A stretch of DNA of 64,000 nucleotides from an uncultured Christensenellaceae bacterium (GTDB lineage Bacteria > Bacillota > Clostridia > Christensenellales > Borkfalkiaceae): the NCBI GenBank assembly GCA_910586825.1, contig CAJUJF010000010.1:5589-69588 (forward strand), given 5' to 3'. The notes below the pieces were generated by a model, which was not told the origin of the DNA, ran no database searches, and saw only the letters and a list, made by a program, of their open reading frames with translations. Positions 17,778-51,201 of the stretch are shown here, one piece after another. Both the position numbers and the translations under genes were made by a program. Numbering within the stretch: the first letter of the stretch is position 1; each line of letters opens with the position of its first letter.

Positions 17778-17810
17778 TAAAAAACTTCCTCTCCGTCACC
17801 GAAGAGGAAG
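17778..17810 (-). terminator. Intrinsic terminator ending the giant-gene operon
   Basis: Minus strand reads CTTCCTCT-TCGGTGACGG-AGAGGAAG (8-bp perfect stem), followed by TTTTTT. It starts 12 nt after the stop of the 849-aa gene. Confidence 0.65.
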
Positions 17811-17821
17811 CAAAATTCGTT

Positions 17822-20371
17822 TTATTTTTTGATAGCGGCGTTTTCAGCGTCGTCGATGACCCGAATCAGCCCGCGGGCGATCAATTCTTCGGTCGTGGAA
17901 TACGGTTCGGCGTAATCAACGGATTCGTGTTCTATCCGCACTAAGCCGTGTTCCGAAAACACCGTTTCGATCAACTGCTTTGCATAATCGAGCCTGCGAT
18001 CGGTCTGCACGCGATAAAGCAGAGGCGTTTTGGTGTTCTTACTCGTAAGCGACAGATCTTCCACCTTGTATTTCGTATTCGCATAACGCGCGGGATCGGC
18101 ATTCAAGCAAAGACACAGCGTTTCCCCGCGGACGACGATCGTAGCAAGACTGACTTTTCCCTTGCGGAAAGATTCGCGCTTCCAATAAACTTTATTGCGC
18201 ACGCCGCGGAAGGAGAAAATGCAATTCTTTAACGCCGAATAACGCTCTTTCAACCCCTTGTCGCCCTGCGCGACGTAAGCCGTAAGACTGACGTTGTACC
18301 GCACGACGTTGCCCGTTTCAGTCACGACGATTTCCGCGGCGTCCTCGTTCTCCTCCTCGTTTTCCGAAAACAACACCGCGAGAGGAATTTCTTCCGCCTC
18401 TACCTGTTCTTCCGACTCTTCCTCCTCCGGAACGGGCGCGGCTTCCGCCACAACGACCTCTTCCGCCGCCTCTTCGGGGAAAATTTCCAAAACGGGAGTA
18501 TCGTCCTCGTCTTCGATCGTCATCTGTGAAAACGGTTCCCCGAACAAAGTCTCTTCTGCGATCGGCTCCGCTTCTTCCGGTTGCGATTCCGATTCGGTGA
18601 CGGTCTCTTCTTGCGTATCTTCGGGAACGGGTTGTTCGACAACGGGCTCTTTGGGCTTTTCCGGTTCGGAAAGCGTTTCTTCCGCGTGCGCGATTCCCCC
18701 GAACGGCGTTCCGCCCTCTCCCATCACTTTGATCAGCTCGCGTTCGATCAACGCTTCCGTCGTCTCGTACGGTAATCGGTAATCCTCCGTTGCCGCTTCC
18801 GCCAAGCGCTCGATCCCCAGCTCCTCCATCATCCGATCGATCAGATCCTTCGCGTAACCCACCCGCCGTTCGTTTCTGATCTGATACAGCAACGGCGTTT
18901 TCGTCTTGGGACTGCGGATCCGCAGATCTTTTACCTTGTACTTCGTCTCCTCGTATTGATTCGGTTCCGTCGCGAGACACAGACACAGCGTCTTTCCGCG
19001 GATCGCAAACGTTGCGACAGTCTGTCTTCCGCAATGGAAACTATCCCGTTTCCAACTGATCCTGCTCTTTACTTTCTTATACGAAAGCAGGTAGTTTTTC
19101 AGTTCCGTGTAACGCGCTTGCAACACGTCGCCGCCCTGAATGAGCCGCGCCGTGAAACTGCGGTTATAGCGCAGAACCCGACCCGTTTCCGTCACGACTA
19201 CTTCGACCTCTTCCGTCTCCTCGTCGGCGAAGTCTGCAAGCGTCGCATCGTCCTCTTCTTCCTCTTCCGCCGTTGTTTCGGCAACGGGTTCCTCGGACTT
19301 TTCCGGTTCGGGAAGCGTTTCTTCCGCGTGCGCGATTCCCCCGAACGGCGTTCCGCCCTCTCCCATCACTTTGATCAGCTCGCGTTCGATCAACGCTTCC
19401 GTCGTCTCGTACGGTAATCGGTAATCCTCCGTTGCCGCTTCCGCCAAGCGCTCGATCCCCAGCTCCTCCATCATCCGATCGATCAGATCCTTCGCGTAAC
19501 CCACCCGCCGTTCGTTTCTGATCTGATACAGCAACGGCGTTTTCGTCTTGGGACTGCGGATCCGCAGATCTTTTACCTTGTACTTCGTCTCCTCGTATTG
19601 ATTCGGTTCCGTCGCGAGACACAGACACAGCGTCTTTCCGCGGATCGCAAACGTTGCGACAGTCTGTCTTCCGCAATGGAAACTATCCCGTTTCCAACTG
19701 ATCCTGCTCTTTACTTTCTTATACGAAAGCAGGTAGTTTTTCAGTTCCGTGTAACGCGCTTGCAACACGTCGCCGCCCTGAATGAGCCGCGCCGTGAAAC
19801 TGCGGTTATAGCGCAGAACCCGACCCGTTTCCGTCACGACTACTTCGACCTCTTCCGTCTCCTCGTCGGCGAAGTCTGCAAGCGTCGCATCGTCCTCTTC
19901 TTCCTCTTCCGCCGCCGTTTCGATAGCAGCTTCTTCGGGCTTTTCCGGTTCGGAAGCCGAATCGACGACCGGCACCGCCTGAATGGGCGGAACCGCGACT
20001 GCGATCGCTTCCGGCGCGGAAATCTTGGTAACGACTTCGTACTTTTCCGCCGCCGAAGAGATGATATTCCGAAGATCGGAAATCGTCTTTTCTTCCGAAG
20101 CGGCGTACTTTTCGGAATCCTGTACGGCGTTAATGACGCCCTCGACGTTGTCCTTATCGACGCTCGCACCGACGTTCATGTTTCTGAGCTGTTGCATCAG
20201 AATTTCGCGTTCCTGTTGCAACAGCTTGTCGTACAGTTTCCGTTCGCCGCGCTTATTGAAGAAATAGGCGACGACGACGTTCGTCACGATCAGCGCCGCG
20301 ACGACGATCGCCGCGACGATACAGATGATCGTTTGCGTAGGGGTAAATACGGAAGCAAGGATACCGTTCAT
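17822..20371 (-). CDS. 849-aa membrane-tethered protein with three copies of an uncharacterised ~150-aa basic domain separated by acidic linkers
   Basis: N-terminal TM helix (IICIVAAIVVAALIVTNVVVAYFF) followed by KRGERK, which predicts a cytoplasmic body. A coiled-coil segment (LLQQEREILMQQL) comes next. The repeated domain reads RYNRSFTARLIQ...ISWKRDSFHCGRQTVATFAIRGKTLCLCL...KYKVKDL...TPLLYQIRNERRVGYAKDLI. The start ATG overlaps the giant gene's stop (TAATG), and the giant gene's last codons form GGAGGTG. Confidence 0.85.
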   Translation of the reverse strand: MNGILASVFTPTQTIICIVAAIVVAALIVTNVVVAYFFNKRGERKLYDKLLQQEREILMQQLRNMNVGASVDKDNVEGVINAVQDSEKYAASEEKTISDLRNIISSAAEKYEVVTKISAPEAIAVAVPPIQAVPVVDSASEPEKPEEAAIETAAEEEEEDDATLADFADEETEEVEVVVTETGRVLRYNRSFTARLIQGGDVLQARYTELKNYLLSYKKVKSRISWKRDSFHCGRQTVATFAIRGKTLCLCLATEPNQYEETKYKVKDLRIRSPKTKTPLLYQIRNERRVGYAKDLIDRMMEELGIERLAEAATEDYRLPYETTEALIERELIKVMGEGGTPFGGIAHAEETLPEPEKSEEPVAETTAEEEEEDDATLADFADEETEEVEVVVTETGRVLRYNRSFTARLIQGGDVLQARYTELKNYLLSYKKVKSRISWKRDSFHCGRQTVATFAIRGKTLCLCLATEPNQYEETKYKVKDLRIRSPKTKTPLLYQIRNERRVGYAKDLIDRMMEELGIERLAEAATEDYRLPYETTEALIERELIKVMGEGGTPFGGIAHAEETLSEPEKPKEPVVEQPVPEDTQEETVTESESQPEEAEPIAEETLFGEPFSQMTIEDEDDTPVLEIFPEEAAEEVVVAEAAPVPEEEESEEQVEAEEIPLAVLFSENEEENEDAAEIVVTETGNVVRYNVSLTAYVAQGDKGLKERYSALKNCIFSFRGVRNKVYWKRESFRKGKVSLATIVVRGETLCLCLNADPARYANTKYKVEDLSLTSKNTKTPLLYRVQTDRRLDYAKQLIETVFSEHGLVRIEHESVDYAEPYSTTEELIARGLIRVIDDAENAAIKK
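18656..19914. repeat. Near-perfect in-frame tandem duplication, period 642 bp (214 codons)
   Basis: 18656-19272 matches 19298-19914 at an offset of exactly 642 bp. The only mismatch I found is 18670 a versus 19312 g. The encoded protein segments are identical. Confidence 0.9.
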
Positions 20372-23300
20372 TACTCTTCACCTCCCGATTTCTTTGCGCT
20401 CTTTTTCCGCGCCGTTTTCTTCGGCTGTTCCGAAGCGGGTTCCGCTTCGCTTTGAACATCTTCCGCAGACGGTTCCGCCCCTTCGCCCGACTGTTCCGCG
20501 GACGATTCGTTCGGTTCTACGGCTTGATCCGCGGACGGCTGCGCAACGGGCGCTTCCGCTTCCTTTGCGTTCGTTTCCGCGCGCGCCTGAATCGTTTCGT
20601 GGAATTCTTTCGCCGCCGCGGCTTCCGCCGCCGCTTCGACGCGTTTTCTGCGTCTGTGGACGAGATACTGAATTCCGATCGCGATCGCGGAGATCCCCGC
20701 AACGACTCCGAGCGAACTCATGACGATCACGAAGATCGTATCCCAGCCGACAACGCTCCAATCGAACTCGATGGCATCCGTCGTGGAATCCGCCCATTCG
20801 AAGTTAAACGGATCTTTCAGCGTGACGGTGACTTTGAACGTTCCACCGTAACTGATTTCGTTGCCCGCGATCTCCATCGTCGTTTCGTCGAACCCGACGG
20901 GCATATAGCGCAGCATGCCGCCGTTTACGATGAACGTGGAAGTGTTCGCCGTAGGCTTTTCGATCTTCTTGCGCGCGACGTTCCAGACGAGTACCGCGTC
21001 CCCCGATTCGTCAAGTGCAACGCCCTCGTCCCAACGGTAGTTCGACGCGTCGCTGATCCTGAACTTCACGGTATACGCGCCCGCGTTCAACGCGCGAAGC
21101 ACAACGCCTTCCGCCGTCGCGGCATACCCTTCCGTGTAATCGTATACGATCTGCGTACGCGTGTTATCGTATCCACGCACCACCGTCTGCAACAGCGCGC
21201 CCGTGTAAGTGTCGTTCTTGCTTTCGCCTTCCGCAACGACGGTCAGCGAAGGCGCAGACAGCCTTGCCTTTTCGATGACGAATTCCGCCGCGCCGCTCGT
21301 CGCGCCGTTGTAGTTCTCCGTCGGACGGACCTCGACGCGCACGAACCAAATGCCCGCCGCCGAGGGTACGGTCGTCGTCCAGTCGTCGGCATTTGCCTCG
21401 CCCGTTTTACTATAATAATACGTGTAACTGTCCTGATTCGTGAGCTGGGTCTGCGTAGACGGCGCGTTCGGCGCGTTTCCGTACGTCCAGCCCTCGATGG
21501 AGACGTCCTTTCCGTCCGCGGTCGGCACAAAGCTGATTTCACCCTTTTCGATCGTGAACGAAACCACCCGCGTCGGACCGTCTACCGTCGCCCATCTGTA
21601 ATTGTTGAAGTCTTTGAGGGTAAGCGTGACGTCCCAGACTCCGACGTTCACATAGGTAACGGGCGTGACTTCGTAGAGCGCTTCGTAATCGTTTGCGTTG
21701 AGCTCCGGACGAAGTTCGCCGCCGGTATACGTTGCGTTCTTGACCGTGATTCCGGAATTCGCGGCATCGATCACCTTTTTGGAAATCACGTATTCCACGC
21801 CGTTGCTCGCGGTGAGCGTATAATTGCCGGAAACGCTTCCGATCGGCTTCGCAACATAGTTGCCTGCGCGCGTAGGCGCCGCGTCGGTTGCCAGAAGTTC
21901 GGTAAAGCTCCATTCGCCGTCGTTCGAAGTCCCGAAGTAAACGAAGCGGAAGCTGGGAACGATGATGTTTTCGATCTCGGCAAGATTCTTGCCTGCGTGC
22001 GCGCCGTTCGCCGCAACCATGCTCTGCGCGTTGTATGCGGGCGCGATCGCGGCGCCGCCGTATTCTCCGCCGCCGCCCGTGAACTCAACGTTGATTTGCA
22101 ACGGGCTCACGATGTACGCGCCGATTACGGGGAAGGTAACTTCGTAGTTTCCGTTCGAATAGTCCGCCGCGATGCGCATCATGTAGTTGCCCGCGCCGTA
22201 ACTTCCGTTGCTCGCAGGCGCGTCGTACAGCGCGAGCGATTCGTAGATCCGAAGATCCGCGATCTCGTCTCCCGCGACGATGCCGCCCTCGGGATATACC
22301 GTGATCTGTGCGGAAGCGAGGGAGAACGGATCTCCGTATACCGCGTTCACGCTGCCGATCAACACGCTGATCTGCTTCTTGGTTACCGTAAATTCGCCCG
22401 TTGCAACGACGACGTCGTAGTTGTCCGCCGTAATCCCCGTCACGACGTCGTATTCCGTGCCGTAAAAGGTATGTTTGGTGCTTGCAAGGGTGAGCGCGTA
22501 ACTGCCCGCGTTGAGCTTTTCGGGCGTTTCGACGAGCCGATACGTCACGCCGCCGTCGGCATAGCGGAGAACGCTCTCCGTTTCGCCCGCGACAAAGCCC
22601 GCGAATCCGAGCGCGTACTGTTGCGACCCGCCGACGGGATCGAACGCCGTTCCGTACACCGCGGTCGCCGAGGGCGTCACGGTGATCCGCGCGCGGCGGA
22701 TTTCGAAGTCGAATTCTTCGCCGACGGCGCGCGTTCCCTCCGTCCCCGCATAATAGTTGTTCGTCGCAGGGCTTACCGCGCGCACTTTGTAATTGCCCGC
22801 CGCAACGGGTTTCCGCGTTGACCAGACGCCGTCCGCGAAATACTCGATTACGATTTCGCCGCCGTAAGTCGCTTCCGCCTCGGGCGCCGCGTAATCCTGC
22901 CCGTAAACCAGCGCTTCCAACACCGAAGCGTCGAACCGCGTAACGGCGTGGTCGCTTGCCGCCGCGACCGACCAGACAAAAGTCGCAACGTTGTTCGCGA
23001 GATCGTAGCGCACGCTGTCGATCCCCTCCGTTTCGTCCAGATCGACGAGCATGTAGTTTCTGGTATCGTTCAGACGGAAGGTCACGGTGTAATCCCCGCG
23101 ATCGGTCTGATAGACGATCAAGCCGTTGTTTCTTCCGTCGCCGTCCGTCGTCGTCTGCGAAACGCCGTCGTACACCACGTCGAACAGCGTGAAATTGTAG
23201 GTGAATCTCGTGCTCAGCCGTTCTCCCGTAAACGTCGGATCGGAAGATTCGACTTTCGGGCGCGACACCGTCGCCTGCGTGACGACGAAGAGCAGATACG

Positions 23301-32300: not shown

Positions 32301-35300
32301 GCGCAAAGAAGAGACTGCCCGCCGAGCTTTCCCAATTCGACGAACCCGTATCCGAACAATACTTCACGTCGGCGGTCCCGATCGCGCTCAGCCCGTTTCC
32401 GGAACTGTCTTCGCCGCCGTATACGAAGTTCAATTTCCACGCGCTGTCGATTTTAAGTCCGAGCGAACGCGCGCCGATTTTGAAGCTCTTCTGCACGTTC
32501 CCGTCGGCATCGACGGTTTCGCTGTCCGCCCACTCGTAATTGTTCTTCGCCGCCGCTTTGATTTCCAGCTTCACGCTGTACGTGCCGGCGTGGAGAACCG
32601 TACCGTCCGTTTCGACGACCCCGACCGGAGTCGAAGCGGAATCGACCGCAAGACTGCCCGACACGATCCCGACGACGTCGTCTTTCTCATCGTATTGCGT
32701 GACGATGCCGTTCGCCGTTATGAAATCGGACGGATCGTGCTTTTGATTGTCGAACGTAATATCCTGCAACAGACGGTCGGATTGCAACTTCGCGGGATTT
32801 ACGGTCACGACGGGCGCGCGGAGAAGCGTCTCCGTCGGCGAATCGCTGAAACGGTACGCGTCGGTATCGGTCGCCGAAACGTATACGACGTATTTGCCCG
32901 CGTTAAGATGCTGACCCGCCTGAGAGAGATCGATCACGTTAAGCGTTTCCGTGTCAATATAGTACAGCTTAAATTCGGTGTATACCGTCCATGCGGGAAT
33001 CGACGCGTCGTCGGAGGGCTTTTCCGAGAGCGGTCTCAGCGTATAAGTCGCGTCGCCGAATTCCGTCACGCCCGTCACTTCGGGAGTTTTGGGATTTTCG
33101 CCGTACGTCCAGACCTTGTCTGCGGACGCGTACGAAACGCGGAGATTGAGCGCGAGTTTATCGATCTGAACGGTGTACGTCAGGCTGAGCGATTCGCGTT
33201 CCGCGCCCGAACTGCCCGCGTCGGCAAACTCCACTTCGTCCTTATGCCGTTCGTCGATCGCGATCCTCACGCGGTAAATCCCCGCTTTCCGGAACGAAAG
33301 CGTGAACTTGTGCGCCGCCTTTTCTCTTTCCACTGCGTAGTCTTCCGCGGGGACTTCGTTCCCGTTCTGATGCAAGAGCGTAACGCTCATCGCGTCAAAA
33401 ATATCGTCGGGCAGATCTTTGGCAAAGGTGATCGTCTTACTGGCGTCGGAAGAAAAATTGATCGTGTCCGTGTTGAACGCGGGCAAAGGCACTTCGTACT
33501 TGCTTACGGGAATGTAAATACGGGCGTAATCGTTTTCGTCCGTCGTAAACTCTACCCAATCGGTCGCGTGAGTGTCGTCGTATATGAATTTGAACCTTAC
33601 CGACCCCACTTTCGTCGTCGCATTGTTGTAAAACGCCTTTACGTTCAACGGCGCTCCGGAACAGTCGGTGGAGGTAAAATATTCGATTTCAAAATGGGAC
33701 ATATCCTCCGTAATGAAATCGGAAAGATATGCGTTTCGCGCTTGCCCCGAACCGTATTTCAAAGATACCGTCATCTGTCCGAAATCGAACGGAGAAAGAT
33801 ACTTCTGCACCGGTCCGCTGTCGCCCGTGGCGATATCTCCGACGGTGGTGACGTTTCTGTAATTAATTTTGAATTGCGCCGTACCTTTGACCGTCGGATC
33901 GGCATTGTAAATGAGCGTAACGTTTTTGAGATAGGTATCGCCCGGCATGTGATTGAGATCCGCCGCCGTGGGCGTGAGCGTCCCTTCCAGCGAATAACCG
34001 GTTGCGAGCGGGTTCCAGGCGCCCGAATTGTCGCGCGTTTCCACTTTGCCGTTGAGAAGGTTCTGGACGGCGGGAGTCGTTACGGCTACGTTCGGTTCCA
34101 AAGCCGTGGTCTGGCTTTCGGCAACCCCGAGCGCGCGGATCCCGATCACTTTCGTCGCCTCGAACGGAATCGTAATCGAAGCGGGAACGGATGTGCCGTA
34201 CTGGACGCGGCTCACCTGTACGCCGATCGTGTTGTCCCCTTCCGTAAACGTCTGCGCGTTGCCGAGGGTGACGAATTCGCCCGAAGCCGCCGTCGCGGTC
34301 GTGTTTTGCAAATCGATCCCCGTAAAGTCGACCGTCTTGGCGGAATGCGCGTAATAGACCGAAAGCACGATCGCATTCTGCATGACGTAAGTACGGTTCA
34401 TCGAATCGATAAACGCCGAGAATTTGACGGGGTTTCCGTTTTCGTCGTTTTCGCCTTCGATCGTCTTGGTATAGCGCGCGCCGATTTTTTCATAGGAGGG
34501 GTTTACCTGAAAATCGGCGGCAAGCAACGGCGCCTGCGACACGGAAATGATTTGCGTGGTCGCAGAAACGGAAGCGTCAGCCGCCAGCGATACCGTAACG
34601 GTCACGGGGAAAGAAGAAGCGTCGCTCAGTTCGCCGCTCAACGAGACGTTGTAGAGTTCGCGGTTGGCGATCAGCTCGTACACACTGCCGTCCGTCGTGC
34701 CGTAGACCTTTAAAACGGAGCCGTCCAGCTTTAAGGACTCCGCCGTATAATCGTCGGTCACGCCCGAAAGCACGGCGGTGTTCATCGACGCGTTGCCGAT
34801 CCTGAGACCGGTATAAACGGGTTTCTCGCCCGTTGCGATGGTCACGGAAACTTCGGCTCTTACCTCGCCCGAAATCACGACGAGCGTCGCGCTCTCTTCC
34901 GTAGAGCCTTCCGCAACGATCGGCTCGTTTTTCCCGATCGCCTGCATCGTATTTCCCGCTTTCAGCGAAAGCGTGAATTCTTCGGGCATCAGCGCGATCG
35001 CCTGACCCAATCCCGCGAAGGTACCCGTAACGGATAAGTTTTGTTTAAAGTCTTCCGCAGTCGTGACGCCGGGATAGACGACCGCACCCTGCACGACGGA
35101 AGCGCTCAAACCCGTGTACGCATGTTTCGGCGAAGCGCTGTCCTGTATGATCGTTGCGGGCGACGTGCTATCGGCGCCCGCATTGGAATTTCGCGCGAAA
35201 TTCGGCGCAAGGATCCCCAACGCAAGCGCTAAACATGCAAAAACGGCACAAGCCGCGATTGCGACTTTGCGCCAAAAGGATACGTTACGGTATGTATTCA

Positions 35301-35301
35301 T
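20371..35301 (-). CDS. Giant (4,976 aa) repeat-built cell-surface protein / putative fibrillar adhesin with a C-terminal membrane anchor
   Basis: Uninterrupted 14,931-nt ORF with GGAGGGG 8 nt upstream of the ATG. N-terminal signal peptide (WRKVAIAACAVFACLALALGILA...NSNAGA). The body consists of tandem beta-rich modules with recurring MBG-like signatures (AGTY/GSY-x-V-x-[VL] ... N-[YF]-x-[WIVT] ... [TI]-[IV]-x-[KR]). Examples are DNYDVVVATGEFTVTKKQISV, NYRWATVDGPTRVVSFTIEKGEISF and NFEWADSTTDAIEFDWSV. It ends in a C-terminal TM helix (IFVIVMSSLGVVAGISAIAIGIQYLV), an HRRRKR stop-transfer and a 95-aa acidic tail. There is no LPXTG. Confidence 0.9.
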   Translation of the reverse strand: MNTYRNVSFWRKVAIAACAVFACLALALGILAPNFARNSNAGADSTSPATIIQDSASPKHAYTGLSASVVQGAVVYPGVTTAEDFKQNLSVTGTFAGLGQAIALMPEEFTLSLKAGNTMQAIGKNEPIVAEGSTEESATLVVISGEVRAEVSVTIATGEKPVYTGLRIGNASMNTAVLSGVTDDYTAESLKLDGSVLKVYGTTDGSVYELIANRELYNVSLSGELSDASSFPVTVTVSLAADASVSATTQIISVSQAPLLAADFQVNPSYEKIGARYTKTIEGENDENGNPVKFSAFIDSMNRTYVMQNAIVLSVYYAHSAKTVDFTGIDLQNTTATAASGEFVTLGNAQTFTEGDNTIGVQVSRVQYGTSVPASITIPFEATKVIGIRALGVAESQTTALEPNVAVTTPAVQNLLNGKVETRDNSGAWNPLATGYSLEGTLTPTAADLNHMPGDTYLKNVTLIYNADPTVKGTAQFKINYRNVTTVGDIATGDSGPVQKYLSPFDFGQMTVSLKYGSGQARNAYLSDFITEDMSHFEIEYFTSTDCSGAPLNVKAFYNNATTKVGSVRFKFIYDDTHATDWVEFTTDENDYARIYIPVSKYEVPLPAFNTDTINFSSDASKTITFAKDLPDDIFDAMSVTLLHQNGNEVPAEDYAVEREKAAHKFTLSFRKAGIYRVRIAIDERHKDEVEFADAGSSGAERESLSLTYTVQIDKLALNLRVSYASADKVWTYGENPKTPEVTGVTEFGDATYTLRPLSEKPSDDASIPAWTVYTEFKLYYIDTETLNVIDLSQAGQHLNAGKYVVYVSATDTDAYRFSDSPTETLLRAPVVTVNPAKLQSDRLLQDITFDNQKHDPSDFITANGIVTQYDEKDDVVGIVSGSLAVDSASTPVGVVETDGTVLHAGTYSVKLEIKAAAKNNYEWADSETVDADGNVQKSFKIGARSLGLKIDSAWKLNFVYGGEDSSGNGLSAIGTADVKYCSDTGSSNWESSAGSLFFAQIVSGYPKYYAKSEFNTTTGVPNAGATEYDPADFGTWDAGDYVVYYVTESAIEDYRDGDFNLPAAHAEFTVSKKSIAQVSFTQSGSDIYNGSAYEISVTNWNAGKDHSADGGKYILTWAVTGVQFGADGVIGTAEMPLTAEIPDGASTALPVGTAADHANGKFSFLHAGRYTVAVTLNANYRWDSYTDDDSEQVTFEYAVGQKEMSAHEVKTPPTSASDGTTFEWTLGFLFDGADHKPVPDASKYFTDDALTFAAAGQVKYYAENGTGVLTGSITAAGTYWVELLAWNAAADGGYSRALNFKLPDGGLKVQFAIMPSALDAPQRTAADLSEEYTGTPYTFGADYFNWNDYKFGENGFRLEIYIVRKTETEQAGLIFTAGASDSKGVSVGMTDVSVYTVYVYPAANFEWSAAAKAASGYQASMSVNGTERAGFAYDFEITQKEIGADGIEWGTVSFIYNGAQQLPSPAVKAESLLHKNDTAATVKFDADGIRITNGTSNATNVGSYTATAIKLSGDRAFNYSLASGIDQEVTISQRQIALPELKGGLSSAAYTGENITQQFTMNKPEMASGYTWNWSAVLSASVAGAYRFDGKNFTMDDQGSFSLDTATLTVRNAGVYTVTFTINDSNFCWANAGNTNVFESAEITVNRQEIIAPMLGEEVGGKFVTHRTMEFNSGNALTPSLRFPTSAWSSSDFEITYGSVTGAASPFVYAEMADKPSSLGCYYVRLKIKNADAALNYVWVENTADTENRGLVKEYAKYEYETGNVSIYLNYAITNKILRIEYAVGGYTFGDNGYFAAGAHTTIVLRDKLTMTDTDGVLLPEGGAYHNVKYTQTITFTDSEGRIVGIVQIGQDGAYSLVKQEGENYVAADASDYPDLVNFLPWNAGSYKFSVRLEFDQDDPMGSQLETLVKEGTFEVGRLAIEYEWSAGDASVKSEGSVWKVTYDGIRHGLIASVTNAPSKTAGGAEETVGIVLNYTAENYPLNANTYAFSAVSLSNDNFTLTGSASVGATLEIEKRAIGVAVTTGVAGHVYGNAIDTSAARWNYVAGSLQLIAGDLTDGETGNDTAQKIVTYEVRKSGVVYGGTVNVGDYELVPVLTDFGKTNYELTVTEDHFGNFEVVPRKITVSITGDESQKSHEYREEKADLSNAYSVVWTNKGAGSDADWRVPQDTPNKIFTLSLFSDAENVTDSTWLAVKEGGYSVRLTKTANANYEITVSSAAVSDGDFAELGVYTVTPAALGDVNADGQTKPYRGSEGYPWLSEDDGGGMITVAATAWNAAENPVVWKYAKGSSDTPPAASSAWGNFPAKVADAMSETYYWVKATAPNHADSAPIRVRVEITKAQLTLTVNFTGDHALYYGEKNPATTVTISDGEPLPAGIYSVTGFVGNDEAKWLAYGTINGLSGSFGFTTSMAAGNRNPVGKGYTTAVSSDGFTLDSLNYTFTYQEGALHIRKLPVTVTIKSNSDVNYMSPDYVGKDVSILQNASHVAFEIGSAADGKVSALPDAQTDIAMLRTTAFTLTGDTIAATQGVGVYPLYAVVLSGNYDFTFAVDGAEYSGTVTDGTLTEGQTIGAPAGVIGITQAQNAFTSGFDFHNEKTGESLETVRDLYAWIYGVNGVNGVADGYDAEGDHRITKPATLLGGDRADAIVYTVFYYNGSAWEQLGESSSDIDALFKALLSGGSFNAGVYKVSYILEGTADYGETPEASRYFSIGKRDLYLWTGDSYAYYGEKPDLIASVKVYGLADGDGDGTPDGFNEVLAYSLSAAGYTDAGSPVADYTVSAVAGEPNDKYGNYTVHLNASYTAESSVQENVTGTLHVLPRPIVIRIESQTSRYDYNAASGTSIADGQPGGKQKLTFTAALGSELEYGALTGTPFYGVAAPYNGVYDNAARAVVELRTNAILNASANEIRTQNVGNYPIFALYQDEAAKKNYAITVETVYTGDPDTEAAVKDYFHKGDAAWNFSDIFVSGYHSELAATATVIGAPEGGVYPAGTYTIEKADLRMSSSDLSYRKADGTYQAYADGDTDAMYYDGRSKGYTAQPADEKYSVVINAQYRIAGSGAEDWTADPVNVGRYEYRFVVDNPDFTWNPGGASNPTINIAKRPLRASVQIDGADRVRAAAYNDNSFKYKGAGADNDYTLTYTFGNYVGSEAVNLAQAVSAQRRALNASESAAFGSLSLESTYGGTYAGYVFTLSAKNAGTYTVTLSLGADMENYVFEMGADLKDGAISFTFTILPDTFNVTAKDAWVQYGTPIGNASQQADAQAAALFQGFSLTQKTLDKIAAENAAFAGSFTNAPVFTAPQYDPAKSQAGASGLYVLPGGLWAYNYDVTYNAASGDANGRLTVNRREITVIVNGYDKDDTSTYAWARKIYTGLAQTVDYRAYADKFFAPQDPNSSRKWYGAAAGDASKNYADLFELTLDFGGTSAINAGDYVMTLHVGESNYRATFKNAAGDTIFAGEHGDSNTNMPSFRIEKAQLYVYAGSVGMNGDNKTVSVDREDAASLGKFREFNITYGNTVKLDDRRDSYFTVRYYGWQHDEGNEYEFLGNRNQMQGSLQFRTELVSGKGEENYAAWNSHAGSVYKVIPYGVTFSNYAINVMNADGTWSNETTFMPAEMTVVSRLVTAETEDRNYAESIVSESGVFDRFNYKGGASGRNHAAQIVFKDFGGNELYGINNAGVYYEGGSAVKGTDIKTDGYEVVANATAIAPKIASYSYAYREGTGDAIPNQGPTRVGKYTVTVTLNSESGNYDYKVVSVSDKTGSTPKTSETLNYAVLQRELSLNWTNYGTTEDGRSYYAWDEEKDRGKKVLELPSYIAAIMEPVVIQYRPDKDRAYDLVSVADIAALADGTYHESDNGLTIRVYGTGEYYLVVRLQDGARNNYTFGTDQVTMPSVRFSATAAKFLVLTYSGWQYTPKEVVHPAPEYRLQNVGDGTSSSVQFAYASVDPSKIPDGFANYGNLLTESDPVAAFGAGTFSAFVPRNAGTYMLRAYYPGTEEISSANAYLLFVVTQATVSRPKVESSDPTFTGERLSTRFTYNFTLFDVVYDGVSQTTTDGDGRNNGLIVYQTDRGDYTVTFRLNDTRNYMLVDLDETEGIDSVRYDLANNVATFVWSVAAASDHAVTRFDASVLEALVYGQDYAAPEAEATYGGEIVIEYFADGVWSTRKPVAAGNYKVRAVSPATNNYYAGTEGTRAVGEEFDFEIRRARITVTPSATAVYGTAFDPVGGSQQYALGFAGFVAGETESVLRYADGGVTYRLVETPEKLNAGSYALTLASTKHTFYGTEYDVVTGITADNYDVVVATGEFTVTKKQISVLIGSVNAVYGDPFSLASAQITVYPEGGIVAGDEIADLRIYESLALYDAPASNGSYGAGNYMMRIAADYSNGNYEVTFPVIGAYIVSPLQINVEFTGGGGEYGGAAIAPAYNAQSMVAANGAHAGKNLAEIENIIVPSFRFVYFGTSNDGEWSFTELLATDAAPTRAGNYVAKPIGSVSGNYTLTASNGVEYVISKKVIDAANSGITVKNATYTGGELRPELNANDYEALYEVTPVTYVNVGVWDVTLTLKDFNNYRWATVDGPTRVVSFTIEKGEISFVPTADGKDVSIEGWTYGNAPNAPSTQTQLTNQDSYTYYYSKTGEANADDWTTTVPSAAGIWFVRVEVRPTENYNGATSGAAEFVIEKARLSAPSLTVVAEGESKNDTYTGALLQTVVRGYDNTRTQIVYDYTEGYAATAEGVVLRALNAGAYTVKFRISDASNYRWDEGVALDESGDAVLVWNVARKKIEKPTANTSTFIVNGGMLRYMPVGFDETTMEIAGNEISYGGTFKVTVTLKDPFNFEWADSTTDAIEFDWSVVGWDTIFVIVMSSLGVVAGISAIAIGIQYLVHRRRKRVEAAAEAAAAKEFHETIQARAETNAKEAEAPVAQPSADQAVEPNESSAEQSGEGAEPSAEDVQSEAEPASEQPKKTARKKSAKKSGGEE

Positions 35302-35528
35302 ATAGTTATCCCCTCCCGCCTGCCGACGCGCTCGTTCCGCGAAAGCAAGCGTTTAAATCACCTATGGTAAAATATGCGCGAATCGGTTCGAAAAGGACTT
35401 CGCCGCACCGTTATCCGGAAAACCGTCTTCCGAGAAAAGATAAAAAATATGCCGAACGGTCTTTTCGGGACAGCCGACGACCTTCAAGCACATTTCAATA
35501 TTTTTATATATTGAACGTTTACGCTTAT

Positions 35529-35558
35529 ATAATAACATACGTGTCGCGTTTTTGTCTA
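35529..35558 (-). promoter_or_regulatory. Candidate promoter of the giant gene
   Basis: Minus strand reads TAGACA, an 18-nt spacer, then TATTAT preceded by TGT (extended -10). This would give a ~220-nt 5' UTR. The -35 is weak. Confidence 0.3.
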
Positions 35559-35578
35559 TACTTCTTGCATAAAAAAAA

Positions 35579-35623
35579 TTGATTTTTTCAGAAAATTATT
35601 AACAGAATTTCCGAAAAAATCAA
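35579..35623. promoter_or_regulatory. AT-rich 11-bp inverted repeat, either a weak terminator of the upstream gene or an operator
   Basis: TTGATTTTTTC (35579-35589) and GAAAAAATCAA (35613-35623) are perfectly complementary, 23 nt apart. On the minus strand a T8 run follows. Confidence 0.35.
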
Positions 35624-35697
35624 ATTTATCCAACAAATTATTCGACTTCCGCCGAACGCGGCCCGAGAAGCAAGCGCACTTTTTCGACACGAAGCGA

Positions 35698-36075
35698 TCA
35701 GATGATCACGTTTTCGAGCGCTTCGTCCTCCTGCGCTTTGCGCACGGCCTGCGCGTTCGCTTTCATCGTATCCATTTTTTCGAGCAATTTTTCGCGCTCT
35801 TGCTGCAAACGCTCGTCGTGCAGTTTGCGCGGCGCAAGCGGCGCGGGCGTCTCCGGTTCGGAAACGATCTCGCCCGATTTCATGCCGTCGAGCTGTTTGA
35901 TGAGCATTTCGCGCTCCTCCTGCAATTCGCCGGTGAGACGGCGTTCTACGTTCCGCTTCATGTAAATGATAAACAGCACGTTCATGACCGTAAGCGCAGC
36001 CAAAAGAACCGCAACGATAATCGATACGGCAAGCTGTGCGGGCGTGAAACTGACTGCAAGCATATTCGTGTTCAT
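35698..36075 (-). CDS. Small (125 aa) membrane-anchored coiled-coil protein, paralogous to the N-terminus of the 849-aa protein
   Basis: The ATG at 36075 (MNTNMLAVSFTPAQ) has GGAG 7 nt upstream. It has a TM helix (LAVSIIVAVLLAALTVMNVLFIIY), then KRNVERR, then two copies of an LQ[EQ]ERE-x-L heptad-like motif. Confidence 0.65.
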   Translation of the reverse strand: MNTNMLAVSFTPAQLAVSIIVAVLLAALTVMNVLFIIYMKRNVERRLTGELQEEREMLIKQLDGMKSGEIVSEPETPAPLAPRKLHDERLQQEREKLLEKMDTMKANAQAVRKAQEDEALENVII

Positions 36076-36199
36076 AACTCTTCTCCTTTGCACTTCTTCG
36101 GTGCGGAACGGATAACGCGAAAGACGTTAGGCGTTTTTTTGCGTACGAAACAATTCCGCGACGCCGTACGGCATCCCGGAAGCGGGTTTTTTAACGCGA

Positions 36200-36427
36200 T
36201 CAGTCGAGCTTTTCGAGTTCTTCGTTCAGCTGACGGAGATTCTTGCGTTCAAGTTCGATCAGCGTCGAAAAAATCTTGAAATATTCCACGTCCGATTCGT
36301 TGGGCGACGTGTTGTTCAGATACGCTTCGAGCAACGCGGACTGGGAGCGCATGCGCTTCTTTTCAAGGGTCTCGATTTCCTTTTCGCTCTCGCTGATTTC
36401 TCTTTTCAGATCGCTTTTCTTAGACAT
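36200..36427 (-). CDS. Small (75 aa) soluble coiled-coil protein, function unknown
   Basis: Strong RBS AAAGGAGAAAGG 4 nt upstream of the ATG. The sequence is charged and heptad-rich (SESEKEIETLEKK...ELERKNLRQLNEELEKLD). Confidence 0.6.
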   Translation of the reverse strand: MSKKSDLKREISESEKEIETLEKKRMRSQSALLEAYLNNTSPNESDVEYFKIFSTLIELERKNLRQLNEELEKLD

Positions 36428-36473
36428 AACCTTTCTCCTTTCGATTTGTTTTTATTAAAACGGATCGCCGTTT

Positions 36474-36830
36474 TTAACTTAGTTTGCGGATATTTTCCAC
36501 CGCGCATGCATAATCGACGCGGACTTGTTCGAACAAAGGAACGGTTTCCGGCGTATACTCCGTCTTTCCGCGAAGCGCTTCCGTCAGTTTGCTTGCGGAC
36601 TCCTGCAAACGCGTGAGGGATAAGTTCAAGCAAATCCCCTTTAACGTGTGCGCGGCGCGGAACGCCTCCTCCATGTTCTTCTCTTCCAAAGACCGGCACA
36701 GCAGCGCATAACTGCCGTCCTCGGCGACTTTGATCAGAAAGCGCACGATGCGCTCGTCCGATCTCAAACGGCTGAACGCCTCGTCGTAATTGGCGCCCAT
36801 TGCCTCGTAACATTCGCGAACCGTCATCAT
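36474..36830 (-). CDS. Stand-alone Hpt (histidine phosphotransfer) protein
   Basis: 118 aa, four-helix-bundle sized, with the phospho-His motif AAHTLKGICLNL (H-x-x-K-G). It starts 9 nt downstream of the response-regulator gene. Confidence 0.8.
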   Translation of the reverse strand: MMTVRECYEAMGANYDEAFSRLRSDERIVRFLIKVAEDGSYALLCRSLEEKNMEEAFRAAHTLKGICLNLSLTRLQESASKLTEALRGKTEYTPETVPLFEQVRVDYACAVENIRKLS

Positions 36831-36839
36831 CTATCTCCT

Positions 36840-38903: not shown

Positions 38904-38906
38904 GTC

Positions 38907-40334
38907 TTACCCTTGCTTATTGCGTTTCGCCAGTTTTTTGAAAATGACGCTGTTTTCCCTGCCGTACTCCGTCGCCTCGTTGCAGTCCTTATTGAGCTTT
39001 GCGGCGCATTCCTGCGGCGTAAGCCTGCCGGAGAGCAGATTGAATATCCCTTTGTAGAATACGTTTCTGACCGAATTGTCCAACCCCTGCCAGTTGGGAT
39101 TTCCGCGCATGAAATGGATCACGTTCGGAATATTTTTGGTAAATTGATCGATCATGAGCATATTCTGCGCTTCCTGCTGTTCGGTGACCCGTTTGCTGGC
39201 GGAAATACTGCCCGAAGAAACGTTGAGCCATTCCTCGGTCTCGTAGATGAATTTCACGAAATCCTTTGCGGCGGCAAGCTTGCGCGCGTCCTTGTTGTCG
39301 AAAATTTCGAAACCGGTCACAAACCTCGTCGCGATTCCGCCCGTCAGGCTCGGAAAATTGACGTAACCGCATTTCGCGACTTCCTCTTCTCCTTGCAGAT
39401 AAACTTCGCAACCGATATTGAAGACGTAGAACGCGATCTGCCCTTCGTGAAAGAGCCTGTCGCAATCGCTCAACGTAAAATTCTGAGGGTGCGGCATATA
39501 CCAATTCCGCTCGATCCCGCTTTGCAGCCATTCCAATCCCCGCAACGCCTCCGGCTCGTCGAAATGAAAATAGCCGTCGTCGTCGACCAGCGATACGCCG
39601 AACCCGCTGATCAGCGCCATGATGTGCGAATCGCCCTGATTGTCTTTGGCGTACATCATCGTGGGCGCGTATTTTTTATCCGTCTTCTGCGCCATGCCCG
39701 CGCCGAGCGTATCCAGCACGTATTCCCATTCGTCGATGCTCCAAGTCTGAATGATGCCCGTTTCGTCTTCCACGAATTCGTCCAATCCGTATTCGCGGAG
39801 AATCGCCTTATTGTACATGAGAATGTTCTGCCGCCCCAGATACGGCAACATATACACCTCGCCGGCGACCTCTCCCCATTCCACGTAACCGTCTTTCAGA
39901 TCGGCGCGCGCGGATTCGGAAAGCAACCCTTCGAGCGAAATCGCGTTTCCGGAATGCACGTACGTGATCATATTATAAAAATCGTCGTAGAGAACGTCCG
40001 CCGCATCTTCCGTTCCGAACATATCCGTTACGAAGCGTTCTTCTTCGCCGTCCGGAAACATATTCACGGTGATCTCGACCTTATCTTTTTTATACTGCTC
40101 CGTGAACGCCTTTGCGGCAAGCGAGAGGAAATCTCCGCTCGTCGCGATCTCCGCGTTCGAAATTGCCGACGGAGTCGACATACGGATCAGCGGCGTTTTG
40201 ACGTTGATCCGGACGGTATCGTCCCCACCGTCGTTTCCGCAACCGCCGAGCGCAAAAAGCGAGAATCCCAAAACGGCGGAAAGCGCCGTGCAAATAATTC
40301 TTTGTCTTTTCATAAGAAAACTCCTCTTATTCAC
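38907..40334 (-). CDS. Extracellular solute-binding lipoprotein (ABC SBP family 1-like), orphan
   Basis: Lipobox FSLFALGGCGNDGG. At 475 aa it has the size and character of an SBP. No permease or ATPase genes are adjacent. There are 3-nt gaps to both flanking signalling genes. Confidence 0.8.
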   Translation of the reverse strand: MNKRSFLMKRQRIICTALSAVLGFSLFALGGCGNDGGDDTVRINVKTPLIRMSTPSAISNAEIATSGDFLSLAAKAFTEQYKKDKVEITVNMFPDGEEERFVTDMFGTEDAADVLYDDFYNMITYVHSGNAISLEGLLSESARADLKDGYVEWGEVAGEVYMLPYLGRQNILMYNKAILREYGLDEFVEDETGIIQTWSIDEWEYVLDTLGAGMAQKTDKKYAPTMMYAKDNQGDSHIMALISGFGVSLVDDDGYFHFDEPEALRGLEWLQSGIERNWYMPHPQNFTLSDCDRLFHEGQIAFYVFNIGCEVYLQGEEEVAKCGYVNFPSLTGGIATRFVTGFEIFDNKDARKLAAAKDFVKFIYETEEWLNVSSGSISASKRVTEQQEAQNMLMIDQFTKNIPNVIHFMRGNPNWQGLDNSVRNVFYKGIFNLLSGRLTPQECAAKLNKDCNEATEYGRENSVIFKKLAKRNKQG

Positions 40335-40337
40335 GCG

Positions 40338-42557
40338 TTAATTCCCCGAATGTTTTTTTAAACTGATCGCTTCCATCTTTTGCAGGAATACCTTCACGTC
40401 GATCGGCTTGGTCAGGAAATCGTTCATGCCGCTCTGCATCGCGCGCACGCGGTCCTCTTCGAACGTATTCGCGGTGCATGCGAAAATCGGAACCGTCTTC
40501 GCGTCTTCGCGGTCGAGTTCGCGGATCGCTTTCGACGCCGCGCAACCGTCCATGATCGGCATGCGCATATCCATAAGAATGATGTCGTATTCGTTTAGCT
40601 CGGAATCGGAGAACATCTGAACCGCTTCGCTTCCGTTATTTGCGTGGGACGCGACAAACCCCGCTTCCCCGAGAATTTCGAGCAGGATCTCCGCGTTGAG
40701 TTCGTTGTCTTCGGCAACGAGAACGCGCGTGGGACGGTTGGTGTCCTTCTGCTTGGTAATCGGAAGCGACATATCCCGACCGTCGGAATACTGCATGTAA
40801 TCGGGCATTTCCGAAATTTCGGCGGGAATGGTTACGGTGAACTTGCTTCCCTTTTCCAGCTCGCTCTCCACCACGATCTGTCCGCCCATCGCGTCGACCA
40901 GCAGTTTGCTGATTGCCATGCCGAGTCCCGTTCCCTTGACGCTGTTGCTGTTGCGGTTGCGCTCCTGCGAGAAAGAATCGAATATCTTTTTCAGGAACTC
41001 CTTGCTCATTCCGCATCCGCTATCTTCGCAGACGAATGTCGTGGCGACCCGCTTGTCGTCGATTATTTTCTGGTGCAACGAGAGTTTGATAAACCCGCCT
41101 CTGGGCGTGAACTTCGCGGCGTTGCCGACAATGTTCATGAGCACCTGCTTGATGCGCACTTCGTCGCCGTAAACGCAGGGCGCTTTGATGTCGATATCCG
41201 TGATGAACCGCACGCCGCGCGATTCGATATTGTCGCGTTGCATCGACCAGATCGCGTCCATGACCGTTTCGAGCAGAAGCGGCTCGTGCGTGAGTTCCAC
41301 TTTCCCCGCCTGCAACTTCGACATGTCGAGCACGTCGTTTACAAGCGACAGGAGATAGTTGGCGGTGCTGTGCGATTTTGCAAGCCATTCTTTGATCTGT
41401 TCCGCCTTTTCGGGGTCGTTGATCGACTGCAACACCAAGTAGTTCAATCCGACCAGCCCGTTGAGCGGCGTCCGGATCTCATGGCTCATATTGGAAAGGA
41501 ATTCGCTCTGCGCCCGTTCCTTGGCAAGCGCTTTGACCGCGCGGTTCTGCGTGATCATGACGAACAGCAACGCAACGATCACGATCAAGAGAACGATGAC
41601 CAACTCTATGATATTGAGCGTGATCAACGAAGAACTCCATTCGTCGAACACCGCTTCGTTGACCGACATGATAAAGTACCATTCGATGCCGCTATCCTCG
41701 AACGGAGTGCAATAGGCGAATCTGCGGACGGGATCGCCGTCCTCGCGGTCGGTGCGGTAGAAACTGAACGTCTCGCTTGCGCTCATCTTTTCCGCAACCT
41801 GTTCTTTGGTAAAATCCGACTGATCGCAGTTTTCGATATACGTAAACAGATTGCGCGTCTGATTCAGATATCCGGTGCGGTAAGCGTCTACGATAAAGTT
41901 GCCCGACTTATCCACGACGGCGCTGTAACCGCGCGGAGAATTGCCTTTATGGAAAATATCGATGACCAATCCGTCCTGAATCGAACTCACTTTCGTAAAA
42001 CCGAGCAGAAAAGACATCTTCTTTCCGCTTACGACCAGATCCCCGAGATTTTCTCCGTTGACGTCGCGTAAGGCAGACACATTGATCCCGTAAACGAGAT
42101 ATTCCTCTTCCTCGTTTTCGCCGACCCAATCGTAATGGAACACCGTGTTGCTCAACACTTCTTCGTTACGTATAAAATGCGCCGAAAAATCGTACTCTTC
42201 TTTATCGAGAAAGAGAAACGTATCGGTGTACGCCGTTCCGTCTTCGCCGACCAGATACACGTAGTCGAACGAACTCTCTTCCCGCTCTTGCAGGATATAT
42301 TCCTGAATATCCTGAATATATCTATATTCCTTGCGGTGGAGTCGCTGACCCATACGATCCAAAAAATCCCAATTGTGATTGATATACGTGTTGATCGCGT
42401 TGCGGTCGTGCTTCACCATTTCGCTGATCATCTGTACGGTATTGGTATGCACCACGCCGTCCAGCAACGCGATGTAGACGACCGCAACGACAAAAACGAC
42501 GCATGCAATGATCGTCGCAACCGCGATATGTAAAACTCGTCTTTTTACTTTTTCCAT
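40338..42557 (-). CDS. Hybrid sensor histidine kinase (extracytoplasmic sensor, HisKA, HATPase_c, REC)
   Basis: TM1 (IAVATIIACVVFVVAVVYIALL), then ~270 aa outside, then TM2 (IIELVIVLLIVIVALLFVMI). H-box SHEIRTPLNG and HATPase motifs (DSGCGM, GTGLGMAI). C-terminal REC (VLVAEDNELN, IILMDMRMPIMDG). I chose the ATG at 42557 (MEKVKRR) because GGAG lies 6 nt upstream. Confidence 0.9.
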   Translation of the reverse strand: MEKVKRRVLHIAVATIIACVVFVVAVVYIALLDGVVHTNTVQMISEMVKHDRNAINTYINHNWDFLDRMGQRLHRKEYRYIQDIQEYILQEREESSFDYVYLVGEDGTAYTDTFLFLDKEEYDFSAHFIRNEEVLSNTVFHYDWVGENEEEEYLVYGINVSALRDVNGENLGDLVVSGKKMSFLLGFTKVSSIQDGLVIDIFHKGNSPRGYSAVVDKSGNFIVDAYRTGYLNQTRNLFTYIENCDQSDFTKEQVAEKMSASETFSFYRTDREDGDPVRRFAYCTPFEDSGIEWYFIMSVNEAVFDEWSSSLITLNIIELVIVLLIVIVALLFVMITQNRAVKALAKERAQSEFLSNMSHEIRTPLNGLVGLNYLVLQSINDPEKAEQIKEWLAKSHSTANYLLSLVNDVLDMSKLQAGKVELTHEPLLLETVMDAIWSMQRDNIESRGVRFITDIDIKAPCVYGDEVRIKQVLMNIVGNAAKFTPRGGFIKLSLHQKIIDDKRVATTFVCEDSGCGMSKEFLKKIFDSFSQERNRNSNSVKGTGLGMAISKLLVDAMGGQIVVESELEKGSKFTVTIPAEISEMPDYMQYSDGRDMSLPITKQKDTNRPTRVLVAEDNELNAEILLEILGEAGFVASHANNGSEAVQMFSDSELNEYDIILMDMRMPIMDGCAASKAIRELDREDAKTVPIFACTANTFEEDRVRAMQSGMNDFLTKPIDVKVFLQKMEAISLKKHSGN

Positions 42558-42575
42558 AACCGCTCCGAATAGATC

Positions 42576-42593
42576 TTGCCGCCGCGGCGGCAA
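42576..42593. promoter_or_regulatory. 18-nt perfect GC-rich palindrome in the 5' UTR of the kinase operon
   Basis: TTGCCGCCGCGGCGGCAA lies ~20 nt upstream of the kinase RBS. It could be an RNA hairpin or a protein-binding site. Confidence 0.4.
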
Positions 42594-42626
42594 CTCAACG
42601 ATATCGGGCAAAGCCCGTACATAATT

Positions 42627-42655
42627 ATTTTATCATATTTATTTACAATACGCAA
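42627..42655 (-). promoter_or_regulatory. Sigma-A type promoter of the kinase/SBP/RR/Hpt operon
   Basis: Minus strand reads TTGCGT, a 17-nt spacer, then TAAAAT preceded by TGA (extended -10). -35 at 42650-42655 and -10 at 42627-42632. Confidence 0.55.
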
Positions 42656-49525: not shown

Positions 49526-49537
49526 ACGGAGGTATTT

Positions 49538-51123: not shown

Positions 51124-51201
51124 AGTTTGGGTGCGGACAGGCACGGCTTTTTCCGCGCGCAAAATCAGGTAATATTATTTATTTTATTGGAGGTTTTATT
51201 C

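Follow-up and report, generated by a model that had tools for sequence, protein, structure and literature searches.

A giant surface protein and its putative cytoplasmic partner form a conserved unit that lies beside a separable, predicted c-di-GMP phosphorelay in an uncultured Christensenellaceae bacterium

In a 64,000-nt stretch of DNA from an uncultured Christensenellaceae bacterium (contig CAJUJF010000010.1 of assembly GCA_910586825.1, positions 5,589 to 69,588; hereafter the window), we found two gene modules that lie head-to-tail on the same strand between 42.6 kb and 17.8 kb. Module A holds the genes of a signalling relay whose last enzyme is predicted to make and degrade cyclic di-GMP (c-di-GMP), and module B holds a gene for a giant surface protein of 4,976 amino acids (aa) and a gene for an 849-aa membrane-tethered partner that carries a ~165-aa repeat domain, which we call DOM. 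The most solid new result is that a giant surface protein and DOM repeats form a conserved unit. A first-pass annotation of this DNA had joined all of these genes into a single island in which c-di-GMP signalling controls a giant adhesin; the anatomy that it described is confirmed with corrections, and the link that it drew between the modules appears plausible but facultative. Our own reading, to which we assign a probability of roughly 0.55, is that the two modules are separable and that the c-di-GMP output of the relay tunes the giant and its partner from the cytoplasmic side.

The giant protein consists of an N-terminal signal or anchor, divergent MBG-like repeats of ~100-150 aa and a C-terminal transmembrane (TM) helix (residues 4856-4874), which is followed by a polybasic stop-transfer stretch (HRRRKR) and a 96-aa acidic tail. 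The 849-aa protein has an N-terminal anchor and then three basic DOM domains (isoelectric point (pI) 9.3-10.1) with strongly acidic linkers between them. The two genes share base 20371, which belongs both to the stop of the giant and to the start of its partner, so that the TAATG overlap proposed earlier is borne out. In the 849-aa family the anchor is conserved (FSPxQ, TM helix, HKRGERKL, LQQQRE) and is followed by two or three DOM repeats. All six family members that we looked up (the window protein and five others) directly follow and overlap a gene for a protein of 4,415-4,976 aa, and the partner directly follows and overlaps a giant open reading frame (ORF) in 10 of 12 informative metagenome loci of the anchor type. 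A shorter, 125-aa protein encoded upstream of the giant is an anchor-only paralogue of the 849-aa N-terminus (anchor hidden Markov model (HMM), E 1.6e-33) and has no match in Pfam or NCBIfam; it is restricted to the window species and its closest relative (L101/L102) and is absent from locus L100 despite the giant there.

In other bacteria, DOM repeats form the C-terminal cytoplasmic end of surface proteins of 1,300-4,700 aa. The fused forms in metagenome loci (1,300 to >3,670 aa) carry at their C-terminus a TM helix, a polybasic stretch, an anchor-like hydrophobic hairpin and DOM copies, and in one fused protein of 4,721 aa the Beta_helix_3 and Flg_new repeats are followed by DOM and finally by a uL15-like domain. 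DOM was found in 3,593 of 1.84 billion cluster representatives, many of which are long proteins with C-terminal copies. Because DOM is fused behind the TM helix of surface proteins elsewhere, the 849-aa protein would be the detached cytoplasmic domain of the giant, and the split pair is most likely a single functional protein made in two parts, with DOM probably in the cytoplasm. DOM repeats 1 and 2 of the 849-aa gene contain a 602-nt exact DNA repeat at an offset of 642 nt, a recent tandem duplication, and other samples contain a 98%-identical variant of 635 aa that has two DOM copies (P0002); therefore DOM copy number varies between strains. In the proteins of two further loci (L074:7485-9959 and L080:7561-9987), an N-terminal TM anchor leads into four Big_3-like Ig repeats, after which come two DOM copies; by the positive-inside rule the Ig-like repeats would be cytoplasmic, an unusual location for them.

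To ask what kind of domain DOM is, we compared it with known families and structures. DOM has no Pfam family: among 42 DOM domains Pfam gave only scattered matches, none better than E 0.015, and PF04237 matched none of these domains at E<=1. A profile built from the DOM alignment had no match in the PDB at E<=10. An AlphaFold2 (AF2) model of DOM reached a mean predicted local distance difference test score (pLDDT) of 93.5, and a Foldseek search with it returned YjbR (2fki) with probability 0.99, followed by 9t2w and 2oc6 (YdhG/DUF1801); DUF5655 was among the structural matches to viral models. DOM is thus predicted to adopt a YjbR/YdhG-like fold, with a similarity that is weak and at the level of the fold only. 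One source labels a DOM-family protein 'MmcQ/YjbR family'. Compared with YjbR/MmcQ (PF04237) and YdhG/DUF1801, which are small cytoplasmic proteins and are the best structural matches, DOM is longer, occurs in tandem, is membrane-tethered or fused to giant surface proteins and shows no sequence-level membership in these families. We rejected Csx1_CARF and SAM_PNT matches in the 849-aa protein, which do not reach the threshold and fall within the DOM fold, GroES matches from NCBIfam, which are sub-threshold and spurious, and, on inspection by eye, a PilZ-type RxxxR / DxSxxG motif in DOM.

The resemblance to YjbR and the strongly basic character of DOM also fit an explanation in which the DOM protein serves export or anchoring independently of c-di-GMP, either as a membrane-tethered protein that binds nucleic acid or ribosomes and so holds the giant's 15-kb mRNA at the membrane during translation, or as a mooring between fibre and nucleoid. 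The C-terminus of many family members, the fused 4,721-aa protein among them, is formed by the uL15-like rRNA-binding domain PF00828, and most pairs have the gene overlap that translational coupling would predict. However, a uL15-like domain is missing from the window protein, DOM matches the YjbR fold only weakly and nucleic-acid binding is putative, and this explanation leaves unaccounted for the regulator and 75-aa genes that recur beside the pair (see below). We regard it as unlikely as a full account, and it is compatible with our reading of two modules coupled through c-di-GMP, not exclusive of it. Among the proteins with the C-terminal PF00828 domain are P0015, P0011 and P0294, and such proteins carry the label 'uL15 family ribosomal protein' in some sources.

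The giant protein itself is hard to place by sequence. The MBG assignment made earlier comes down to one MBG_2 match of 22 bits, below the Pfam cut-off of 25, and draws some support from nine divergent internal repeats that share an AGxY ... NY ... YTG/YG pattern and were detected with fragment phmmer searches and iterated HMMs. A single-seed HMM and self-BLAST of the giant detected no repeats, NCBIfam gave no match, and an AF2 model of one repeat, built on an alignment of the nine, had a pLDDT of 41 and was unusable. A protein search with the first 900 residues returned no match at E<=0.001, and because of this we reached the homologues of the giant through the neighbouring genes. There is no LPXTG motif before the C-terminal helix, and the protein is thus not a sortase-anchored LPXTG adhesin. 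From the N-terminus on, the window giant aligns colinearly with its homologues in L100, L015 and L016, but at an identity of only 23-28%, while the regulators encoded at the same loci are 64-76% identical. This difference points to very fast divergence of the exposed protein, and the giant is therefore a likely target of host or phage selection.

Module A begins with a hybrid histidine kinase (HK) with HisKA, HATPase_c and REC domains (Pfam), in which two predicted TM helices flank an outside domain of ~285 aa; its top NCBIfam matches are BarA, TorS and LuxQ, each below its cut-off. The next gene encodes a solute-binding protein (SBP) of the family SBP_bac_1 (Pfam E 4.7e-17) with an LGGC lipobox. 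Its gene adjoins that of the kinase, and the SBP may dock on the outside domain of the kinase. The more likely start of the SBP gene is the ATG at 40313, which lies behind an AGAGGAG ribosome-binding site and whose equivalent is called as the start in L001. With this start the gap between the kinase and SBP genes is 24 nt and not the 3 nt given before; the other two gaps of the series, 3 and 9 nt, stand.

The response regulator (RR) that follows has a full set of intact motifs: D57 in the receiver, HD208, HHE at 267 and GYP275 in the HD-GYP part (HD_5, Pfam E 1.2e-31), GGDEF594 and an RxxD I-site at 585-588. The peptide RTTDIGARMGGDEF (residues 585-598) holds the GGDEF active site with the RxxD I-site five residues upstream. 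The residues of D57, HD, GYP, GGDEF and RxxD are invariant in 19 homologues, except the last residue of GYP. By these features the regulator is predicted to be both an active diguanylate cyclase (GGDEF and RxxD) and an HD-GYP phosphodiesterase (HD and GYP in HD_5). The Hpt protein (Pfam E 2.1e-9) carries HTLKG, and a kinase with HisKA, HATPase_c and REC, a separate Hpt protein with HxxKG and D57 of the regulator make up the complete set of parts of a hybrid-kinase/Hpt phosphorelay. The 75-aa protein encoded after Hpt has no Pfam or NCBIfam family; it is helical as read from its sequence and carries the motif LE-KR-RSQSALL ... D-EYF. An RsiG-type ExxxSxxRxxxQxxxD motif was considered in this protein and rejected on inspection by eye.

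To determine how these genes are arranged in relatives, we scanned GTDB species representatives with an alignment of the regulator, which yielded 80 loci with flanks of 10 kb that fall into 56 lineages when regulators are clustered at 75% identity. The RR-Hpt core recurs across ~56 lineages: the Hpt gene adjoins the RR gene in most of the 80 loci, usually just downstream, and a hybrid kinase gene adjoins this core in many of them. Among the RR loci, the 75-aa gene follows Hpt in the close clade only, where the 75-aa protein belongs to the relay unit. The SBP gene is restricted, among the loci examined, to the window species, L100 and L101/L102. In L015, L016, L017, L019 and L103 the partner kinase has ~1,000-1,050 aa and no SBP gene is present, and the L015 kinase has two REC stretches (Pfam). 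The kinases outside the closest relatives are longer and have no SBP; therefore the sensory input of the relay differs between lineages.

The relay often stands beside surface-structure genes of differing kinds. In L082:1-9912, four genes lead up to an RR-Hpt-HK cassette: one for a GLUG-motif protein that is 2,741 aa or longer, and three for small proteins, of which two have prepilin-type N-termini. In L018 a 2,174-aa Flg_new protein occupies the same place relative to the relay as the GLUG protein of L082. In L104:1-9719, the RR-Hpt cassette lies directly downstream of phage-like genes (P22/SU10-type portal) and an HTH_26 gene. We did not count L082 (GLUG and prepilin-like), L018 (Flg_new) or L104, which has a faint Chlam_PMP match, as cases of giant adjacency; these proteins are not homologues of the giant.

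When we looked for module B next to the relay, we found giant or DOM genes adjacent in 4 of the 56 RR lineages, in three gene orders. The order seen in the window (relay, 75-aa gene, orthologous giant) also occurs in L100, whose RR is 76% identical to that of the window, and in L015 and L016, and in L016 the giant gene follows the 75-aa gene after just 59 nt. In L084 and L134 the order is giant, anchor-DOM protein, RR; the RRs of these two loci share 76% identity with one another and 46% with that of the window. In L074 and L080 a Big_3 and DOM protein lies directly upstream of the RR. A further arrangement is found in L151 and L152, where the giant and the DOM protein are followed by a homologue of the 75-aa protein and there is no RR nearby. 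The giant is thus syntenic with the relay in L100, L015 and L016, and two other clades join parts of the two modules in other orders; this part of the earlier proposal stands, but many relatives have the relay and no giant. The neighbourhood comparison also disposes of the objection that the two blocks are never syntenic in related genomes. Because the modules are adjacent in only some lineages, and because the 75-aa gene can stand beside the giant-partner pair without the regulator, their coupling would be plausible but facultative; adjacency that is recurrent but optional in turn suggests that the output of the relay tunes module B.

By a rough estimate, chance would produce such adjacency in ~0.1 lineages or fewer as against the 4 observed, so the modules appear to be adjacent more often than chance predicts. 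Several points weigh against a functional coupling. The chance estimate is rough and related genomes are not independent samples; most of the other giants exceed the 10-kb flank, which leaves their upstream neighbours outside view and the reverse test of association incomplete. The closest relative, L101/L102 (RR 82% identical), has LysR, HK, SBP, RR, Hpt, the 75-aa gene and a 122-aa gene, and then ThrRS, IF3, L35 and L20, with no giant there. There is no giant or DOM neighbour in ~52 of the 56 RR lineages, and GCA_949840955 has the giant pair on one contig and the nearest RR homologue on another. As for the proteins themselves, Pfam found no PilZ, degenerate GGDEF/EAL or MshEN domain in the module B proteins or the 75-aa protein, DOM matches 2fki only weakly (E 0.03; TM-score 0.41 when normalised to query length, 0.56 to target length), and the placement of DOM on the inner side of the membrane in the 849-aa protein is suggested by the positive-inside rule and by the fused forms.

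The rarity of the adjacency and the missing giant in the closest relative are what would be expected of coincidental neighbours, that is, of a general c-di-GMP controller next to an independent surface module, mobile or fast-evolving, which was inserted once and has since been inherited or lost. This explanation would also fit the separate promoter-like site before the giant, the housekeeping genes on both flanks and the downstream context that varies among relatives, and the arrangements in the window, L100, L015 and L016 may stem from a single ancestral one. The relay and the 75-aa gene occur without the giant in L103 and L105, L019 and L021 likewise have no giant at the corresponding position, and L104 has a different, 1,603-aa protein there. 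However, three gene orders join the same families, and they do so in clades (L084/L134 and L074/L080) whose RRs are only 46-47% identical to that of the window; the 75-aa protein travels with both modules; and immediate adjacency of two single-copy modules would be expected in only ~0.1-0.2% of genomes by a rough estimate. Coincidence is somewhat unlikely in our judgement, and we retain the reading in which the relay tunes module B.

We then examined how the modules may be transcribed. The promoter proposed for the signalling operon at 42627-42655 has a TG extension and a 17-nt spacer, but its -35 hexamer matches the consensus at only 3 of 6 positions, which is why a consensus scan did not list it. 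The gap of 396 bp upstream of the giant is AT-rich as described (41% GC as compared to 55% for the region) and contains a sigma-70-like promoter for the giant itself (TAGACA, 18 nt, TATTAT with TG; 35529-35558). A leader of ~227 nt separates this site from the giant; it contains a weak terminator-like hairpin (35452-35468), and its folding energy has z = -2.74 relative to shuffled sequences. The promoter block aligns partly with L100, and the leaders of the window, L100 and L015 do not align. Since a promoter-like site lies inside the gap, the region is not obviously one transcription unit. Rfam searches found no c-di-GMP riboswitch or other cis-regulatory family in the window at gathering score, none in 35200-36500 at E<=10 and no c-di-GMP-I or c-di-GMP-II match in L100, L015, L016, L084, L101 and L104, in agreement with the absence of a riboswitch noted earlier.

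These data bear on the version of the first-pass annotation, in which a single co-regulated island of ~25 kb lets c-di-GMP act directly on the giant's tail and on two tethered neighbours as a Gram-positive counterpart of LapD/LapA. The genes are indeed co-directional with short gaps inside the relay, only 59 nt separate the two modules in L016, and the modules are adjacent in several relatives. However, we found two separately conserved modules, with a promoter-like site of the giant's own, a nearest relative whose relay has no giant, and a giant in L100 that lacks the 125-aa protein. The tail is also an unlikely receiver. The last extracellular repeats are common to the homologues of the giant, as are the TM helix and the polybasic stretch, whereas the acidic, low-complexity tail ranges from ~10 to 110 residues among seven homologues (10-25 in L095 and L097), with neither length nor sequence conserved, and it is therefore a poor candidate for a specific receiver. 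We consider a single island of this kind very unlikely; the tethered proteins and the 75-aa protein, which the first-pass annotation had not singled out, appear to be better receiver candidates than the tail.

Taken together, these data are consistent with a mechanism in which the exported SBP lipoprotein and the kinase outside domain would sense an external ligand, probably a carbohydrate. Phosphate would pass, as the domain set suggests, from the kinase His to the kinase REC, then to Hpt and to the REC domain of the regulator, whose intact GGDEF and HD-GYP domains would set c-di-GMP levels. In module B, probably a translationally coupled pair transcribed from its own promoter, the N-terminal signal of the giant would direct its export and the C-terminal TM helix would retain it in the membrane, and the 849-aa protein, through its own N-terminal hydrophobic segment, would place three basic YjbR-like domains in the cytoplasm and act as the giant's detached cytoplasmic domain. 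The c-di-GMP output would tune this pair, with the 75-aa protein or the DOM domains, and not the giant tail, as the likeliest receivers. In a stronger form of this proposal, DOM and the 75-aa protein would receive the c-di-GMP output and alter retention, clustering or export of the fibre, a hitherto undescribed inside-out control in gut Firmicutes that would be a functional analogue of LapD/LapA built from unrelated parts, with DOM or the 75-aa protein as a c-di-GMP effector of a new class; we hold this stronger form to be speculative and rather improbable.

The LapA/LapD/LapG system of Pseudomonas is a giant adhesin system controlled by c-di-GMP. The window resembles it in that a second-messenger enzyme is encoded near a repeat adhesin of several thousand residues and that the gene next to the adhesin encodes a membrane protein whose domains would lie in the cytoplasm; inside-out control is thus conceivable. 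In Pfam scans of the eight products we found no EAL domain and thus no LapD-like receptor, and the sole GGDEF domain is intact and lies in the soluble REC regulator; the region holds no Pfam family of a LapG-like protease or type I secretion system (T1SS), and the giant has a Sec-type N-terminal signal or anchor. The lack of a LapD/LapG-like pair, which had been noted before, is thus upheld. The giant also differs from the Lap adhesin in being held by its own C-terminal TM helix, the YjbR-like domains of its partner have no known nucleotide-binding role, and the linkage between the modules is optional.

Control of adhesins by c-di-GMP in Gram-positive bacteria is known mainly through riboswitches, and in Clostridioides difficile both adhesins and type IV pili are controlled in this way. 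The window would likewise be a case of Clostridia that use c-di-GMP on surface adhesins, and its giant has a long structured leader; in contrast, this leader is not conserved between relatives and neither the window nor the six related loci match an Rfam riboswitch. SBP-assisted hybrid-kinase relays are also known, as in TorT/TorS-TorR and LuxP/LuxQ-LuxU-LuxO, and XylFII-LytS is an example in Clostridia. Module A shares with these an exported binding protein beside a membrane kinase, a hybrid kinase with an Hpt step and the NCBIfam matches to TorS and LuxQ. It differs in that the SBP belongs to the SBP_bac_1 sugar family and is confined to the closest relatives, with longer kinases and no SBP in wider ones, that Hpt is a separate protein and that the output is a REC/HD-GYP/GGDEF enzyme, not a transcription factor. 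Among giant surface proteins, Giant1-5 of Apilactobacillus kunkeei lack a TM helix and are attached by SH3b-like or sortase motifs (PMC12863079). Like these proteins and like LPXTG adhesins such as Embp, the giant described here diverges rapidly and carries, behind an N-terminal signal peptide, imperfect repeats that extend over kilobases; what sets it apart is its C-terminal TM helix with a cytoplasmic tail, together with a cytoplasmic partner dedicated to it.

The features of the region are listed in Table 1. Between the promoter and the terminator, the ORF listing contains eight ORFs and not the ten genes counted previously; ORFs and Pfam matches confirm that all of the genes lie on the minus strand in the order described. 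The terminator placed at 17778-17810 corresponds to a strong hairpin with a T-run at 17784-17811, and a tRNA-Ser gene (anticodon CGA; 17606-17695, minus strand) lies just past it; L084 also has a tRNA near the RR. The flanks are housekeeping genes, with LysR, MnmE and TruA upstream and tRNA-Ser, a deaminase and a Na/Pi transporter downstream. Further away, at 49457-50644 on the plus strand, is a gene for a 395-aa BspA-type leucine-rich-repeat protein (LRR_5, E 4e-60), likely a surface protein, which adjoins a PFOR gene at 51127-54738. Proteins identical to those of the window are found in many mouse-gut assemblies and metagenome-assembled genomes (MAGs). Among GTDB species representatives the closest named relative is Pumilibacter intestinalis (regulator 72% identical), and the next-closest regulators come from MAGs labelled Christensenella or Christensenellaceae.

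Table 1. Features of modules A and B, with positions in the window.
Feature	Position	Strand	Evidence and remarks
Candidate promoter of signalling operon	42627..42655	-	TTGCGT, 17 nt, TAAAAT, TG extension; read from sequence
Hybrid histidine kinase (HK), 739 aa from ATG	40338..42557	-	Pfam, TM prediction
SBP_bac_1 lipoprotein (SBP) ORF	38907..40334	-	Pfam, LGGC lipobox; likely start ATG 40313
REC/HD-GYP/GGDEF response regulator (RR), 687 aa	36840..38903	-	Pfam, motifs
Hpt phosphotransfer protein, 118 aa	36474..36830	-	Pfam, HTLKG motif
75-aa protein ('p75')	36200..36427	-	Conservation among relatives
125-aa TM protein, anchor-only paralogue of 849-aa N-terminus	35698..36075	-	Anchor HMM
AT-rich intergenic region, 396 bp, with promoter-like site and leader	35302..35697	-	Promoter scan, GC content
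Giant surface protein, 4,976 aa	20371..35301	-	Translation, TM prediction, internal repeats
849-aa membrane-tethered partner with three DOM domains	17822..20371	-	Translation, family members, AF2 model
Intrinsic-terminator-like hairpin closing giant/849-aa unit	17784..17811	-	12-bp stem, 6 G-C pairs, then TTTTT

In keyword searches that covered giant surface proteins and HD-GYP/GGDEF/Hpt relays, we came across no account of the giant-DOM pair. Regardless of whether the modules are coupled, the comparison brings out a widespread unit in which a giant surface protein is combined with a cytoplasmic DOM-repeat module, either as a fused protein or as an overlapping gene pair. It raises the questions of which ligand (DNA, RNA, ribosomes or nucleotides) the basic, double-wing-like DOM domains bind and why a fibre needs a large cytoplasmic domain. 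If the coupling is true, a protein-level route of c-di-GMP onto a giant membrane-anchored fibre would be new in Gram-positives, and it would explain how surface display is tuned in abundant, little-studied Clostridia of the mouse and human gut.

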